DNA of 25,224 bases from Candidatus Hodarchaeum mangrovi (GTDB lineage Archaea > Asgardarchaeota > Heimdallarchaeia > Hodarchaeales > Hodarchaeaceae), in NCBI GenBank assembly GCA_016839515.1, contig JAEOUE010000242.1:1-25224 (forward strand), read 5' to 3'. Shown piece after piece: positions 674-7,314 of this stretch (within the stretch, counting starts at the first letter, position 1; the number at the start of each line of letters is the position of its first letter). The notes under the pieces are model-generated. The model did not search any database. It saw nothing but the letters and a program-made list of their open reading frames with translations, and was not told the origin of the DNA. Position numbers and translations under genes: made by a program.

Positions 674-901
674 TTAACCACTCCACCTTAAACTTTCAAT
701 TTTACGATCCTTTTTCAACTTTTTTTTAATTTTACGATAATGATCAGTACAAAGGTGTACTCTAGTCACTTTATCCTTTATAGAAAGACTCAAGTTAGCT
801 TCCTTAATTGTACTGCCAGCTTTTTCTCTCGAAACAGTCTTTTTATATTCGTTAGGACATCCTTCAACGTCACAATTCTTTTTTTTTGAAATAAATGTCA
901 C
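674..901 (-). CDS. Small basic C2CH zinc-finger protein (archaeal hypothetical)
   Basis: 75 aa, GTG start. CDVEGC-x35-CTDH followed by a Lys/Arg-rich helix. Lies 9 nt downstream of the RecA-fold gene on the same strand. Confidence 0.7.
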   Translation of the reverse strand: MTFISKKKNCDVEGCPNEYKKTVSREKAGSTIKEANLSLSIKDKVTRVHLCTDHYRKIKKKLKKDRKIESLRWSG

Positions 902-910
902 ATCCCATCT

Positions 911-1666
911 TTAAATTAATGGTGTAAGCTCAATATGCCCAGGAATTGGCTTAAATACGAAATCTGTATTCTCAACTTCTCTCATAGTCATACCAGGAAC
1001 TTTTCTAATTTGTAAAAACTCAACTAATCCACCTTCCTTTTCTTCTAGTTCTTTATGTGTAATTTTTATTACACTATCACAATAGTGTTCAACAGCTGTG
1101 ACAATTCTAGGATCATGCACATCACAATGTAGTGTTAGAATACTAACTATACCCATTTCTTTATCTGTAGCGATTTTATGCTGTAAAAAAGCCATAGGAG
1201 GTTTCAAGGTGTCTGAAACTAGTAATAGAGTTGTTAATGAATCCAAAACACCACGGACAGGTTGAGATCTAACATGAAGTAAAGATCGTCTAATTTGGTC
1301 AGTAACCTGGCGAGGCTGGGTTATATCACGAATAACATTTTCTCCTAAAGCACTAGGTCTTCCTTCAGAATAACCAAAAGGATTGGAAAAAGCATCTAAG
1401 AAGATTAGTCTTTTCGTTTCAAAGGTAACCTCAGAAATATTGTACGGTACAAATAAAGGCGAATAATGAGAGAATAAATGCTCAGTCGATAGAATATAGC
1501 CATATTCACCTGTTCGTAGACCTTCAGAGAGAAATTGGATTAATATATGCTCTGTGTTTATCCCCACCTCATCTTCAACTAGGATTATTGATCCTCGTGG
1601 GACACCCCCACCCAAAGCATCATCTAGAAGGGGGATCCCAAATTTTGCTCTGTCTTCCATTGTCAT
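911..1666 (-). CDS. RecA/KaiC(RAD55)-superfamily protein with degenerate Walker A (probably inactive ATPase; Elp4-like features)
   Basis: N-terminal GIPLLDDALGGGVPRGSIILV, then QFLSEGLRTGE and Walker B-like VLDSLT. The P-loop position reads EDEVGINTE (no GKT) and the KMRG Arg-finger position reads KVPG. Confidence 0.8.
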   Translation of the reverse strand: MTMEDRAKFGIPLLDDALGGGVPRGSIILVEDEVGINTEHILIQFLSEGLRTGEYGYILSTEHLFSHYSPLFVPYNISEVTFETKRLIFLDAFSNPFGYSEGRPSALGENVIRDITQPRQVTDQIRRSLLHVRSQPVRGVLDSLTTLLLVSDTLKPPMAFLQHKIATDKEMGIVSILTLHCDVHDPRIVTAVEHYCDSVIKITHKELEEKEGGLVEFLQIRKVPGMTMREVENTDFVFKPIPGHIELTPLI

Positions 1667-3744: not shown

Positions 3745-4374
3745 TTGACAAATTTAGATGAATTTTTTGGAGATGAAAGGTCAAAAAATATTGATACTCT
3801 TGTTGAAGTAACGAAAAAGTTCTTTATCTTTGTTTCACAACTCGCAGAGATAGTTGATGAACTAGAAAGAAATTTTGCAGAACTAAATCTCAAAGTGGAT
3901 CAATTACTTCAAGGAAGAACAGCAGCACCATCAAAGAGTTCGATACAATTTTCAACGCCAGTCCCACCTTCAAGTTCACAACCGTCTCCTCCCTCAGTTT
4001 CACAACCTTCAGCATTTCCAACCCCACCATCACCAGTACAGGCTTCCCCTCGGACTCCACCATCACCATCATCATTTACACCACCTTCACCATCGATTAC
4101 CACAGCCTCCCCTCCAAGTCTACCTCCTCTACCTGGACAAGTTCCATCATCAACTCCCCCAGTTTTTGGAGCACCACCATCACCATCAAATCCAGCTGAA
4201 TTTGGCCAACTTCCACCTCCTAGTCCTGGATTTGACTCACAGGGACCCCCAGGTACTCCTGGTTTAGGTGTTGCACCACCACGTCCATCCCCAATGAGTT
4301 TGAAAGCTCAAATGAATATGGAACTTAAAGAAGCCTTTTCACGTATTCGAAAGGGTTGGGATGAGGAAGGATAA
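3745..4374 (+). CDS. Proline/serine-rich protein with N-terminal coiled coil and C-terminal amphipathic helix plus W-acidic tail
   Basis: 209 aa, TTG start. Residues ~15-57 are heptad-like helical, ~60-183 are Pro/Ser-rich low complexity, and the C-terminus is MSLKAQMNMELKEAFSRIRKGWDEEG. It fills the gap between folP and the Get3-like gene. Confidence 0.8.
   Translation: MTNLDEFFGDERSKNIDTLVEVTKKFFIFVSQLAEIVDELERNFAELNLKVDQLLQGRTAAPSKSSIQFSTPVPPSSSQPSPPSVSQPSAFPTPPSPVQASPRTPPSPSSFTPPSPSITTASPPSLPPLPGQVPSSTPPVFGAPPSPSNPAEFGQLPPPSPGFDSQGPPGTPGLGVAPPRPSPMSLKAQMNMELKEAFSRIRKGWDEEG
4021..4188 (+). repeat. Imperfect coding repeats encoding (T/A)PPSP(S)
   Basis: ccacc(a/t)tcacca cores within units starting near 4021, 4054, 4078 and 4171 (peptides TPPSP, TPPSPS, TPPSPS, APPSPS). 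Confidence 0.6.
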
Positions 4375-4386
4375 TTCTTCTAAATT

Positions 4387-5346
4387 TCACTGTTCTTTTG
4401 CATATAGGAGTTCTGATAGCTCTCTTAATTTAAGTACTCCCCTTATTTCATGCACGAACATTGGAATTTCGATTAGATCGTACTCTGAATATAACTCGTG
4501 AATCCGTTCCAAGTTACCCTTTTGGCTTTCAAATCGTGCAGAACAATATTCACAATTAGGATTTTCTGGCTGAACTTGATTAATAAAGATTTGGGAAACA
4601 GGAAATGCAACTTCATATAATGCCCTAATTAGTCTCTCAGTTTCCCAAATAGCCATAACAGTAGGAATCGTAACAGGAATGAATTCGGTTTCTTTCTTAT
4701 CTTCTAAATGGATACGAGCAATCTCGACTTGATCTTTTAATTCTTCAAGCTTTTTGAATGCTTCATCTTCATTTGGGATAGTACTACCTCCAAATAATGT
4801 TTTGAATCCAGACATTAAACCTCCTAACCTTTTTCTCATTTTTATAAGGCGATAAAGCCAACCCTGTGTTAATTCAGGAAGTTGAAGAAGCTTAAGAGTA
4901 TGACCTGTTGGAGCTGTATCAAAAACGACTATATCATATTCTGGATTTTGAATGAACTCTAAAAGCTGTATAAAAGCTACTGTTTCATCAGTTCCTGGAG
5001 CTGAAAGTGAGGACGGATCATCACCTCCTAGAAATTCTGTTAATGTTCCTGTTGGATCTTGTTGACTCATCATTTCAGAATAAGTCCTCATTGTATCAGA
5101 TGTACTTAATTCCACAGCCCAGAGATTTTTTACACCTTCTACTAAATAATGGTTATCTCCTCCAATTTGCTGGTTTAAGCTATCGGAAATTGAATGGGCA
5201 GGATCGGTTGATACTAGTAGTGTTCGGTATCCCAGATCAGCTGCTTTAATAGCGGTAGCAGTAGCCATTGTTGTCTTACCTACACCTCCCTTTCCCCCAA
5301 AAAAGACAAATTTTTTATTAAATATAGAATTAGACATATTTGACAA
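4387..5346 (-). CDS. get3: Get3/TRC40/ArsA-family ATPase (single-domain, Get3-type)
   Basis: Deviant Walker A GGKGGVGKTT, switch I STDPAHS, switch II DTAPTGH, hydrophobic insert LYRLIKMRKRLGGLMSGFKTLFG and C-terminal CEYC (CxxC). An ATG at 5337 is an alternative start. Confidence 0.88.
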   Translation of the reverse strand: MSNMSNSIFNKKFVFFGGKGGVGKTTMATATAIKAADLGYRTLLVSTDPAHSISDSLNQQIGGDNHYLVEGVKNLWAVELSTSDTMRTYSEMMSQQDPTGTLTEFLGGDDPSSLSAPGTDETVAFIQLLEFIQNPEYDIVVFDTAPTGHTLKLLQLPELTQGWLYRLIKMRKRLGGLMSGFKTLFGGSTIPNEDEAFKKLEELKDQVEIARIHLEDKKETEFIPVTIPTVMAIWETERLIRALYEVAFPVSQIFINQVQPENPNCEYCSARFESQKGNLERIHELYSEYDLIEIPMFVHEIRGVLKLRELSELLYAKEQ

Positions 5347-5441: not shown

Positions 5442-6053
5442 ATGAAGCAAGGAAGGAAAATCCTCCTAATAGCTTTTATTTTAGCTATTTGCATATCATC
5501 CATTAATTTATGTTCTATTGGGATTTTTTCATCACAAGCAGACCCTAATTACAACATACGAAGTATAAATACAGATTATCCACGTTTATTAGTTACAAAA
5601 GTTGTTGATAAATCAGAAATTGTTCTTGGTAATAGTTTTACCGTAACTATTACTATTTATAATTTTGGTAATAAAACAGCATATAACGTAACCTTCATTG
5701 ACCAAATTAGTAATCCTTGGATCTTTAATATCTCTGGTCTTACTCAATTGTCTTACGGTCAAATTAATCCAAATGATACTCGTCAATTTAGCTATTTAGT
5801 ACAAGTAAAATTAGTTGGAAAATACACTTTGTATTCTGCGAAAGTTGAATACTACTCTTCAGAGATAGAATCCTCAAAATTTCAATCATTTAGTAATGAA
5901 GTGGATATAGAGGTAATAGAACCACCAGCTGATTTTTCTTTAAGTAATTACAATGTTGTTATTACCTTTCTAATTATCCTATTTATTCTAGATTCATTAT
6001 TGATAATTCGATTAATAACCCCTATTCTAAATCGTAGATTAAAACAGGAATAA
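5442..6053 (+). CDS. Translocon-associated protein beta (TRAP-beta/SSR2)-like or DUF11/BatD Ig-fold membrane protein
   Basis: N-terminal signal/anchor, an Ig-like domain (RLLVTKVV...TITIYNFGNKTAYNVTFID...FNISG...QINP...VGKYTLYSAKVEY) resembling the TRAP-beta lumenal domain, and a single C-terminal TM helix with a basic tail. Confidence 0.7.
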   Translation: MKQGRKILLIAFILAICISSINLCSIGIFSSQADPNYNIRSINTDYPRLLVTKVVDKSEIVLGNSFTVTITIYNFGNKTAYNVTFIDQISNPWIFNISGLTQLSYGQINPNDTRQFSYLVQVKLVGKYTLYSAKVEYYSSEIESSKFQSFSNEVDIEVIEPPADFSLSNYNVVITFLIILFILDSLLIIRLITPILNRRLKQE

Positions 6054-6639: not shown

Positions 6640-7314
6640 TCAATCGAAAATATAAGAATAAACTTCACTCCGTGGTTCAAAAAATTCTCCATCATCTCTG
6701 AGTTCTTTTATTGCTTCCTCGATTTGAGCTAGATCAACTTTTGGTAATCTCTTTTTTATCTGTTTTAATGTTACCCCAAATCCTTCATCAAGCTCTTGAA
6801 CAATATCTTTTAATTTTTGTTTCAAATCCTCAAAAGAAACAATACCGTCTCCTAATTCAATCCCACCAATTTTTGCTTTCTCAACATTAAATTCTTTCTG
6901 AGTTCTTCGTATCTGTTGAGCAATTTTCAGAGAATGATAGATTAACCAATTATCATCTTTTATCTTTTTAACTATTTCGGGATAAATATAGACTTCTATT
7001 GTATCTTCCTGCTCTGAGACCTGTATTCTTCCTAAAACTTCAATAAAATCCCATTGATTGAGTTCAGAAAGAGATCCATCCCATGATTTTACCGTTATAA
7101 CACCAGTTCCATCTTCTACAGTAATTCCGGTGTAGTTATTCTCTCCCTTGATAAGATAAGTTATAAAACCTAGGATCCAAACTCGGGAAAGATTTTCTCC
7201 TAAAGATGTAATCACCTGCCATCTTTCATCTTCATTAACTTTAGTTAACTCAGATCTGTTGATTTTTTCTATCATAAGTCTCTGATATGGTCTTCTCCTT
7301 CTCATATCGTTCAC
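6640..7314 (-). CDS. Replication protein A subunit RPA32/Rpa2-like (OB fold + C-terminal winged helix)
   Basis: OB-fold signature RVWILG...ITVEDGTGVITVKSW, linker helix, and winged-helix-type C-terminus IEEAIKELRDDGEFFEPR. Confidence 0.78.
   Translation of the reverse strand: MNDMRRRRPYQRLMIEKINRSELTKVNEDERWQVITSLGENLSRVWILGFITYLIKGENNYTGITVEDGTGVITVKSWDGSLSELNQWDFIEVLGRIQVSEQEDTIEVYIYPEIVKKIKDDNWLIYHSLKIAQQIRRTQKEFNVEKAKIGGIELGDGIVSFEDLKQKLKDIVQELDEGFGVTLKQIKKRLPKVDLAQIEEAIKELRDDGEFFEPRSEVYSYIFD

Follow-up and report, generated by a model that had tools for sequence, protein, structure and literature searches.

A small coiled-coil protein with a proline-rich linker and a conserved C-terminal helix, encoded across Asgard archaea: a tentative candidate for an actin-linked factor

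The X gene and the layout of its product

The window, that is, the entire 25,224-nucleotide stretch of the Candidatus Hodarchaeum mangrovi assembly that was analysed (contig JAEOUE010000242.1), carries a gene for a protein, here called X, whose features are collected in Table 1. The open reading frame lies where the preliminary description of this DNA had placed it, and the homologues of X start at the same N-L-D-E-F-F position. All the strings quoted in that description, namely FVSQLAEIVDELERNFAELNLKVDQLL, LPPLPG (126-131), LPPPSP, GPPGTPG, APPRP, KAQMNMELKEAFSRIRKG and the terminal WDEEG, are found in X, and its caution that no proline run exceeds three residues is accurate as well. At the sequence level, the gene is confirmed as real: 37 homologues reach E<=0.01, with near-invariant termini and a drifting linker, a pattern that exceeds chance.

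Table 1. Coordinates of X and of its elements in the window
Feature	Position	Strand	Details
Protein X coding sequence	3745..4374	+	TTG start, TAA stop; 209 aa, stop within the span
Acidic-aromatic N-terminal cap NLDEFF, residues 3-8	3751..3768	+	D5, F7 and F8 invariant in alignment A2
Predicted coiled-coil helix, residues 12-57	3778..3915	+	AlphaFold2, heptads, hhalign to the Heimdallarchaeaceae family
Pro/Ser-rich disordered linker (predicted), residues 58-185	3916..4299	+	Composition, AlphaFold2
FPTPP motif, residues 91-95	4015..4029	+	P92 and P95 invariant in genus alignment A1
LPPLPG motif, residues 126-131	4120..4137	+	LPPLPG in 32/35 and LPxLP in 35/35 sequences of genus alignment A1
Basic amphipathic C-terminal helix (predicted) MSLKAQMNMELKEAFSRIRKGWD, residues 184-206	4294..4362	+	AlphaFold2 helix 186-206; genus-invariant
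Trp-acidic end WDEEG, residues 205-209	4357..4371	+	35/35 genus sequences have KGW and then acidic residues

In an AlphaFold2 model built on a 35-sequence alignment, a short helix at residues 3-7 precedes a long one at residues 12-57, in which the 10-residue blocks over positions 21-50 score pLDDT values of 93-94. Residues 58-185 are modelled without structure (pLDDT of about 50), and a further helix spans residues 186-206, with pLDDT values of 76, 88 and 66 for the final three 10-residue blocks. The best-fitting heptad register places L, I, V, M or F at 11 of the 13 a/d positions of the long helix, and the 128 residues of the linker include 42 prolines and 28 serines. The succession of an N-terminal coil, Pro/Ser-rich disorder and a C-terminal helix, as originally proposed, matches the structural model, the composition and the conservation among the homologues, and this layout of three parts is genuine and maintained by selection.

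A family without a name across Asgard archaea

X had been labelled an orphan; the label has to be dropped because a profile derived from diverse members matches 322 of 400 Asgard genomes (about 80% of the sample). Within the order of X, the family is present in all 24 genomes, and the named relatives are all from Asgard archaea, each annotated "hypothetical protein". By sequence comparison, X is the Hodarchaeales member of a family without a name that spans the Asgard archaea and whose proteins are small (about 100-235 aa; the member in L. ossiferum has about 150 aa and an ELKELFAKRK-like end), and the predicted parts that the family conserves are the N-terminal coil, an LPxLP or poly-Pro track, and the C-terminal basic helix. 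The last two can be immediate neighbours: in the largest family searched (f20), ...GGPPGGPPPPPGG... directly precedes the C-terminal ...SLRGAIMGELKELFAKRK.

The literature search returned no description of the X family, although supplementary tables, which were outside its reach, may hold one. No significant Pfam family was obtained for X, for 17 members of the Heimdallarchaeaceae sister family or for 21 diverse members, the matches of family members being sub-threshold and to short oligomeric coiled-coil families. At E<=10, hmmscan runs with the whole of X, its N-terminal 61 residues and its C-terminal 34 residues produced no match to the WH2, WH1 or VASP_tetra families of Pfam, and WH2 was likewise unmatched in the 17 sister-family and 21 diverse members. 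Two profile searches of the PDB gave nothing significant, with weak coiled-coil or low-complexity matches at best E values of 0.56 and 0.014, and two peptide searches gave no matches at E<=10. The ESM Atlas contributed Asgard clusters without names, all scoring below 0.9. Longer, fused forms of X did not appear in the search, which is weak evidence against their existence.

The family profile also retrieves bacterial YbgF/CpoB proteins as weak matches (E values of 1e-5 to 1e-3). Among 10 longer matches that were scanned, five combine TolA_bind_tri with TPR, a sixth has just TPR/YfiO and another is a kinase; the YbgF/CpoB-like and kinase matches of the deep search were treated as false positives caused by the coil and low complexity. 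A weak match in one genome (G038), a 298-aa protein with a coil, a Pro/Thr-rich region and, by eye, a putative membrane-spanning stretch, was likewise set aside as coil and low-complexity noise.

Conservation along the protein

The conservation of X is concentrated in its termini. In the cap, F8 is conserved in at least 90% of the sequences of the broad alignment (A6). The linker varies in length and sequence across the homologues and carries two conserved motifs: the pattern [FL]P[TSAN][PL]P is present in 35/35 genus sequences (A1), and LPPLPG corresponds to LPPPP[GS] in the two sister-family members compared, with P130 invariant in the broad alignment and PPPP present in 20 of its 35 rows. 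The predicted C-terminal helix is the best-conserved element of the family. Across the 35 rows, E-L is found in all, F in 33 and each of two basic positions in 34, and the hydrophobic positions are L/I/V in 33 and L/I/M/V in 34. The terminal motif is unique in the source genome, where we found no second copy. The widely conserved short linear motifs on disordered linkers that the family appears to possess represent a style of protein organisation that is usually regarded as eukaryotic.

A basic, amphipathic helix with conserved hydrophobic positions could be a membrane-targeting sequence, which would make X a membrane-tethered coiled-coil spacer. This is improbable given that the hydrophobic moment is unexceptional (11.6% of shuffled sequences reach it), that the helix contains an invariant Glu, and that an acidic tail follows it in the genus and in many relatives; the 26 residues at the end of X have a net charge of 0. 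The terminal helix may resemble the basic block with which Ena/VASP binds F-actin, as well as the WH2 helix. We take the spacings of the terminal motifs to be incompatible with RPEL, PIP-box, FFAT and IQ elements, and these readings were dropped.

The WH2 domain is characterised by an L-K-K-T/V-type motif a few residues past an amphipathic helix. X, which ends in ...SRIRKGWDEEG, has no such motif after its helix, and a WH2 domain is not recovered by Pfam at E<=10 either. In a further reading, X would be a nucleation-promoting factor of the WASP/WAVE type, in which the terminal helix and the Trp-acidic tail would form a compact VCA and activate a complex of the Arp2/3 kind. The strict conservation of the Trp-acidic end in the genus fits this proposal, as does an ARPC4-like ORF in the source genome that scores 30.7 bits, above the Pfam cut-off. 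The Trp, however, is absent from both sister-family members compared (0/2) and, in the broad alignment, is found in 5/35 rows, all five from the genus of X, being replaced elsewhere by L, I, M or other residues. The confinement of this end to the genus undercuts the WASP/WAVE-Arp2/3 interpretation, and so does the lack of a WH2 match in X. Furthermore, a single actin-family gene was found in the source genome, which is 91% complete, so that no Arp2 or Arp3 paralogues are evident. Taken with this evidence, activation of an Arp2/3-like complex by X is highly improbable.

Relatives with additional helices in Heimdallarchaeaceae

The Heimdallarchaeaceae sister family consists of proteins of 264-314 aa that are annotated 'hypothetical protein' and possess four C-terminal helices. 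Their N-terminus is homologous to that of X (hhalign over 55 columns, Prob 91%, E 1e-6), and the C-terminus of X aligns best to one of the internal helices (E 1.1e-3). One of the helices in this family is 10 residues long, has G at its end and leads into L-[TK]-K-V in extended form; in the resulting G-L-[TK]-K-V, the G, L and K are invariant, and the LKKV version occurs in 3/17 members. By eye, this element appears WH2-like. Among the individual relatives, P0122 contains ...TLKKAP... and ...LARRRQK..., and in P0119 such helices are repeated.

Genomic neighbourhoods and candidate partners

In a tblastn search with queries from the source genome (actin, four gelsolin-domain ORFs, one ARPC4-like ORF and three profilin-like ORFs), no actin, gelsolin, ARPC4-like or profilin genes were detected near X family members in 40 loci (541 kb) or in the window, which counts against a link of X to actin. 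Genes for Vps4 and/or ESCRT-III, the former called as MIT-AAA-Vps4_C by Pfam, are located 4-7 kb from the X homologue in 9 of the 40 loci (3/3 in family f9, 2/4 in f11, 2/2 in f26 and 2/4 in f27). X might then be an ESCRT-linked adaptor, an oligomer whose LPxLP motif and basic terminal helix are offered to parts of the ESCRT machinery such as the Vps4 MIT domain, as the tails of ESCRT-III and ligands of the IST1 and Vfa1 types are, and that recruits or regulates this machinery. The tails of the Asgard ESCRT-III proteins in the same genomes are compatible with this possibility: they consist of LPxxP followed by a terminal K/E-rich helix of the form E-L-x3-hydrophobic-x-K-hydrophobic-K, a spacing that, by eye, is shared with X.

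The synteny, however, is loose. In the nine loci, unrelated genes stand between X and the ESCRT genes, and these intervening genes differ among f9, f11, f26 and f27; no ESCRT gene is present in the window or in the remaining 31 loci, which come from 10 additional families and from short f11 and f27 contigs, and the two Snf7 genes of the source genome are on a different contig from X. The same regions also retain other unrelated genes, namely, those for a VTT-domain protein and, judged from sequence only, two clusters, OB-fold-like and roadblock-like, so that the ESCRT-proximal block may be residual ancestral synteny. In family f25, Snf7 is missing (0/5 genomes), as is X at E<=1e-3 (0/5), and actin is present in 5/5, but this apparent co-loss was downgraded because a divergent 156-aa candidate (coil and terminal ...DLRDELISLLKNTR) turned up there.

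The profile comparisons point away from ESCRT-III. With an HMM of 35 X-family C-termini, only X was found among the 15,686 ORFs of the source genome, the ESCRT-III ORFs being outside the top 25; with an HMM of 12 ESCRT-III tails, the best X-family C-terminus ranked 91st and X itself was unlisted. Neither direction of profile comparison thus supports mimicry of ESCRT-III tails by X, and the idea was rejected at that level. Pfam detects no Snf7 core in X, nor in the 21 diverse members, and a paper on ESCRT neighbourhoods (PMC11188069), in the part available to us, does not mention an X-like protein. The ESCRT-type adaptor, which the preliminary description had kept as a fallback, has thus gained the synteny in 9/40 loci and failed the profile tests both ways, and we consider it unlikely. 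Should X nevertheless bind Vps4 or ESCRT proteins, the machinery by which archaea remodel membranes would gain a new accessory.

Given that the tests single out neither actin nor ESCRT, X may instead be an adaptor or spacer with the same architecture and a different ligand, serving membrane-protein biogenesis (as the GET, TRAP and VTT neighbours would suggest), proteasome assembly (PAC2), a ubiquitin-like system or a partner that is not yet recognisable. The X gene is convergent to Get3/ArsA in 11/11 genus loci, in nine of which a TRAP-beta-like gene is next, and a VTT-domain membrane protein is encoded at most about 0.8 kb from the homologue in five loci of four families, directly adjoining it in four. 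One genus genome encodes a PAC2 protein that has the X-type terminal motif at its end. In f25, the X profile gives a weak coiled-coil match directly upstream of a PAC2-like gene and the divergent 156-aa candidate adjoins an E1/ThiF-type-like gene, both by eye. None of these associations is general, however: the Get3 arrangement is convergent, hence not a single transcript, and the sister family has lost it, and the X homologues have no phylum-wide shared neighbour. A local rearrangement or a misassembly seems to lie behind the PAC2 case; in that genome, an N-terminal fragment of X lies 1.3 kb away on the opposite strand, and the PAC2 orthologue of the source genome ends in a different, Tyr-containing tail. 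A role in one of these machines is a possibility that we regard with some doubt.

A possible connection to the actin system

The most that can be said of the partner of X is a tentative best single guess, suggested by motif resemblance: the actin system or profilin, engaged in an Ena/VASP-like manner. The source genome encodes one actin (380 aa), an ARPC4-like gene and six gelsolin-domain matches (five above the cut-off). An orthologue of the genus profilin was not found in the source assembly; there is a profilin-like ORF with 28% identity to the genus profilin, and weak Pfam profilin matches (E<=1) occur in 19/21 genus genomes. As originally framed, the actin proposal depended on the conservation of the C-terminal motif and on the presence of actin in the lineages concerned. 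It is not overturned outright because the architecture and the C-terminal helix are conserved, the relatives are all Asgard and the genome has an actin system; the part that did not hold is the Trp-acidic end, with its conservation limited to the genus.

The published observations on Asgard profilins are mixed. The Heimdall LC3 profilin binds a poly-Pro peptide of VASP that contains PPLP (PMC8410842), and the Loki and Odin profilins were reported to lack poly-Pro binding (as summarised in the same paper). In the portion of that source at hand, Asgard proteins carrying poly-Pro motifs are listed, none of them assayed there as a profilin ligand. The Asgard actin regulators cited in the accessible parts of two further sources are gelsolins and profilins only, with formins and Ena/VASP assigned to the more complex machinery of metazoans and amoebozoans (10.1101/2025.11.30.690169; PMC13716822). 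The proteins that the main text of a Lokiactin co-immunoprecipitation study names as enriched are a profilin, five gelsolins and one ARF GTPase; no X-like protein is among them.

Under the actin scheme, the 45-residue N-terminal heptad helix would assemble X into a parallel oligomer, from which each chain, going by its composition and predicted disorder, would extend a long, stiff Pro-rich tether. The tether would bear the LPxLP/poly-Pro track and end in the conserved basic amphipathic helix, for which a docking role can be proposed because of its conservation. This architectural part of the mechanism, that is, coil, tether and terminal helix, is probably correct. The more conjectural part assigns the recruitment of profilin or profilin-actin to the poly-Pro/LPPLPG track and the contact with actin to the terminal helix, so that the X oligomer would act as a minimal assembly or tethering factor resembling the EVH2 region of Ena/VASP rather than as an Arp2/3 activator of the WASP/WAVE type.

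Extended to the entire family, this scheme would describe a factor for actin-filament assembly that is pan-Asgard and pre-eukaryotic. In this coiled-coil oligomer, the poly-Pro/LPPLPG tracks would be what Asgard profilins naturally bind, and the terminal helices (tandem and WH2-like in Heimdallarchaeia) would deliver or hold actin; in other words, it would be a polymerase of the Ena/VASP or tandem-WH2 type predating formins, Ena/VASP and WASP. Such a generalisation is conceivable and doubtful at the same time. X, with its putative oligomerising coil, poly-Pro tracks and near-invariant putative docking helix, is a candidate for the missing layer of Asgard actin regulation beyond profilins and gelsolins.

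Comparison with known systems

The predicted layout of X has partial counterparts in several systems. Bacterial YbgF/CpoB, with a TolA-binding trimeric coil and TPR, shares the short oligomeric N-terminal coil followed by an Ala/Pro-rich linker, but the terminal helix is present in none of the 10 matches scanned. The Heimdallarchaeaceae family has the homologous cap and coil, a disordered linker and a related C-terminal E-L-[KR]-x-A-F helix; it differs from X in that the linker consists of Ala/Pro/Asn-rich APNLSA repeats instead of Pro/Ser-rich sequence, that there are four helical motifs, including G-L-[TK]-K-V-D-P-D-E-H-R-K-E-R, and that LPPLPG and the Trp are missing.

The tails of ESCRT-III and other MIT ligands (MIM2 and MIM1; IST1 and Vfa1 type) resemble X in the combination of an LPxxP-type element with a terminal basic helix after disorder. 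X, unlike ESCRT-III, has no Snf7 core, its motifs do not adjoin but are separated by 25-66 residues, and there is no profile likeness in either direction. With WASP/WAVE proteins and their VCA region, X has in common a helical region for assembly at the N-terminus, a middle rich in Pro and a helix at the C-terminus, and the Trp of the acidic end is shared by the genus of X only; set against this are the lack of Trp conservation beyond the genus, of an LKKT/V motif, of a WH2 match and of detectable Arp2/Arp3 paralogues.

Compared to Ena/VASP, the order of the parts is inverted, the only coil of X being N-terminal, X has a single terminal helix, and neither an EVH1/WH1 domain nor a Pfam match to VASP_tetra or WH2 is present. 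The components themselves are similar to those of EVH2, namely, an oligomerising coiled coil, a Pro-rich region of the profilin type, short basic amphipathic helices and flexible linkers, and at the position of the G-actin-binding motif of Ena/VASP, relatives of X carry a helix with the L-[TK]-K-V element.

Architecture and conservation of the 209-aa protein

The protein analyzed here (hereafter X) is the product of a real gene under strong constraint, and consists of an N-terminal cap, a coil, a Pro-rich tether and a terminal basic helix; the coil is likely to mediate oligomerization and the terminal helix would serve for docking. All the sequence strings cited in the preliminary description are present in the X frame (see the table for coordinates). 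In the AlphaFold2 prediction from a 35-sequence alignment, residues 3-7 form a short helix and residues 12-57 a single long one (pLDDT 93-94 over 21-50), residues 58-185 have no structure, and residues 186-206 are again helical. When the long helix is set in its best heptad register, L/I/V/M/F occupy 11 of its 13 a/d positions; the 128-residue linker includes 42 Pro and 28 Ser. Short minus-strand ORFs overlapping X have no support and were regarded as shadows of the Pro/Ser-rich frame.

A word-indexed search detected 37 homologues of X at E<=0.01; all 11 with organism names come from Hodarchaeales, Hodarchaeota or Heimdallarchaeota and are annotated as 'hypothetical protein'. As a single query against whole genomes, X matched 24 of 41, including all 21 other genomes of the genus and one of the two from a sister family in the same order, with almost nothing beyond; a profile of the genus set yielded matches in all 24 genomes of the order. 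The homologue alignment is invariant or nearly so along the first 55 positions, in the FPTPP and LPPLPG motifs of the linker and along the last 27 positions; the remainder of the linker varies in length and sequence. Within the genus set, every sequence has LPxLP and the full terminal motif (35/35 each); 32/35 carry LPPLPG, and only 4/35 contain four consecutive Pro residues. Two proteins from the sister family of the same order retain the L-D-x-F-F cap, the coil and a terminal helix (...SLRSQMMSELHGMLKKFRDR...), as well as two LPPPP[GS] motifs; both lack the Trp found at the end of X.

Features of the window and of related genomic loci
Feature	Location	Strand	Remarks
X CDS	window 3745-4374	+	open frame, 209 aa, TTG start
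Get3/ArsA ATPase	window 4387-5346	-	E 2e-84
TRAP-beta-like membrane protein	window 5442-6053	+	E 3e-14
224-aa ORF	window 6640-7314	-	RMI2 (RecQ-mediated genome instability protein 2) match below the cut-off (23.6 vs 29.4 bits), E 4.8e-5
ARPC4-like ORF	G000 (genome of the window), C263:4263-4541	+	155-aa frame, 30.7 bits, over Pfam cut-off
Profilin-like ORF	G000, C75:4108-4506		28% identity to profilin of the genus
PAC2-family protein	L043 (G018:C162) 752-1447	+	ends in X-type motif (...NAFSRIRKGWDEEKE)
X fragment	L043 2763-2909	-	48-aa N-terminal fragment of second X copy

A phylum-wide Asgard family

X belongs to a new protein family that spans the Asgard phylum. The earlier view of X as an orphan is untenable: besides the 37 homologues, at E<=1e-3 the profile of an alignment of 21 diverse members (A6) has matches in 322 of the 400 Asgard genomes searched, covering 79/90 high-quality genomes and 71/85 genera. 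A merged profile searched against 1.84 billion representative proteins produced 99 matches at E<=1e-3, of which 19 reached E<=1e-10. The end-to-end matches (104-264 aa) share the plan of X, namely an acidic-aromatic cap followed by a coil, by Pro tracks (GLPPLPG or PPPPPG, for example) and by a terminal helix of the type ...L-Q-A-Q-L-K-N-E-L-A-E-A-F-K-K-I-R-x-x-L-D-E-E. Names were available for 10 of the 20 clusters looked up, and all 10 are Asgard 'hypothetical proteins' (Hodarchaeales, Heimdallarchaeota, Promethearchaeota, Njordarchaeota, Helarchaeota, Freyarchaeota and Kariarchaeaceae); the ESM Atlas returned only unnamed Asgard clusters with scores <0.9. Longer merged-profile matches, to bacterial YbgF/CpoB-like proteins or a kinase, were treated as false positives.

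X, whole or in parts, has no Pfam match even at E<=10, and the recurrent sub-threshold matches among its relatives are to short oligomeric coiled-coil families (DUF1664, NPV_P10, HSBP1, LPP). PDB profile searches gave nothing better than weak coiled-coil or low-complexity matches, and no fused forms of the family were found, which is weak evidence. In the largest taxonomic family searched (f20), members are about 150-175 aa long, and ...GGPPGGPPPPPGG... immediately precedes ...SLRGAIMGELKELFAKRK at the C-terminus. In a long superfamily member, P0119 (452 aa, named Kariarchaeaceae), ...SQMQELKNAFSGGGDQSHL... occurs twice, accompanied by a ...DLQSALSGLKAP... element and by a helix reading ...QSEIMGVLSRRRDRKEEE...; this looks like a tandem expansion of terminal modules.

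Three Heimdallarchaeia families have low A6 counts (8/31, 4/12 and 3/12), which probably reflect a divergent sister-family form. Weak profile matches from beyond the order led, via two contig-truncated ORFs, to a Heimdallarchaeaceae family of 60 proteins (loci L082 and L083; P0038-P0097; full-length members 264-314 aa), whose N-terminal cap and coil are homologous to those of X, with 55 columns aligned by hhalign (Prob 91%, E 1e-6). The linker of these proteins carries APNLSA-type repeats and is followed by four predicted short C-terminal helices, among which the terminal helix of X aligns best with the third (E 1.1e-3) and next with the fourth (E 0.023). One 10-residue, Gly-ended helix precedes an extended L-[TK]-K-V-D-P-D-E-H-R-K-E-R segment; in the alignment of this family (A4), G, L and K of the helix-G-L-[TK]-K-V motif are invariant, and LKKV occurs in 3/17 members. 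By eye, the helix with G-L-K-K-V appears WH2/thymosin-like; the motif has no match in Pfam or, in a peptide search, in the PDB.

The preliminary description included a helix with a Trp-acidic end, and only the helix is a family trait. Among 35 diverse C-termini, its E-L is invariant (35/35), F is found in 33/35 and each of two basic positions in 34/35, whereas W occupies its position in only 5/35, all from the genus, with L/I/M or other residues elsewhere; this marks the Trp-acidic end as a local feature of the genus rather than a signature of the family. In one genome of the genus (locus L043), a PAC2-family protein ends in the X-type motif, and a RagA/Gtr1-like GTPase gene separates its gene from a fragment of a second X copy on the opposite strand; the PAC2 orthologue of G000 (C139) has a different, Tyr-containing tail. 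This case reflects either genuine transfer of the motif or a rearrangement or misassembly.

Genomic neighborhoods and a possible ESCRT link

The gene order of the genus, CofE-like, DHPS, X, Get3/ArsA (convergent) and TRAP-beta-like, is kept in relatives' loci, which extend only 1.5 kb to each side (CofE, DHPS and Get3 in 11/11, TRAP-beta in 9/11), and is lost in the sister family of the same order; the remaining window content is housekeeping genes. The adjacency of Get3/ArsA and TRAP-beta-like genes brings together two eukaryote-type ER-targeting and translocon components. Among 40 loci of family members (14 families, 541 kb), there is no neighbor common to the whole phylum. In five loci (L110, L111, L112, L116, L121), which represent four families, a VTT-domain (DedA/VMP1-type) membrane protein is encoded no more than about 0.8 kb from the X homologue, directly adjoining it in four.

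In 9 of the 40 loci, the X homologue has a Vps4 gene (MIT-AAA-Vps4_C), ESCRT-III genes or both at a distance of 4-7 kb (f9 3/3, f11 2/4, f26 2/2, f27 2/4), with intervening genes that differ from family to family. An ESCRT-linked partner of X is nevertheless improbable: such genes are missing from the other 31 loci and from the window (the ESCRT cluster of G000 is on another contig), and the ESCRT-proximal regions also keep the VTT-domain gene and two clusters judged, by sequence only, to be OB-fold and roadblock-like, so that residual ancestral synteny is an alternative to functional linkage. Asgard ESCRT-III tails, in which a terminal K/E-rich helix comes after LPxxP, resemble X by eye, but profile tests of this likeness were negative whichever side supplied the profile. 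Among the 15,686 ORFs of G000, only X (42.8 bits) was scored by an HMM built from 35 C-termini of the X family, with the ESCRT-III ORFs outside the top 25, and an HMM of 12 ESCRT-III tails placed the best X-family C-terminus no higher than rank 91, X itself being unlisted. In f25 (G292-G296, 75-83% complete), which may be an ESCRT-poor lineage, neither Snf7 nor, at E<=1e-3, X was matched in any of five genomes; actin is present in all five, and the Vps4_C matches are in Cdc48-sized frames (about 750 aa) except for one of 414 aa. This apparent co-absence is unreliable, since f25 has a divergent 156-aa candidate that combines a coil with a terminal helix of related type.

The actin/profilin system as a candidate partner

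The combination of a coil, poly-Pro and a basic helix, together with WH2-like modules in relatives, makes the actin/profilin system a tentative candidate partner, at the level of motifs. G000 encodes one actin, its only actin-family gene, and has six gelsolin-domain matches and an ARPC4-like ORF. Pfam-detectable profilins are present in 19/21 genomes of the genus; an orthologue of the genus profilin was not found in the 91% complete G000 assembly, which contains only a profilin-like ORF with 28% identity to it. Tblastn with the G000 actin, four gelsolin-domain, one ARPC4-like and three profilin-like ORFs detected no match in any of the 40 loci or elsewhere in the window, although divergent profilins or other-class gelsolins could escape this search. 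Taken singly, actin/profilin is the likeliest partner yet less likely than not, and a partner of some other kind is only slightly less probable. Given that the family is so widespread and the constructs are small, a bench test is worthwhile.

In the available text on a Lokiactin co-immunoprecipitation, profilin, five gelsolins and an ARF GTPase are named as enriched. Heimdall LC3 profilin binds a PPLP-containing VASP peptide with sub-millimolar to millimolar affinity, and Asgard proteins carrying poly-Pro motifs are only listed in the available part of that report (PMC8410842). X had been likened to WASP, WAVE and VASP together; if actin/profilin is its partner, X would be Ena/VASP-like rather than WASP/WAVE-like. 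In the available text of two recent accounts, the actin regulators treated for Asgard archaea are gelsolins and profilins, and formins and Ena/VASP appear solely as parts of the metazoan and amoebozoan machinery (10.1101/2025.11.30.690169; PMC13716822).
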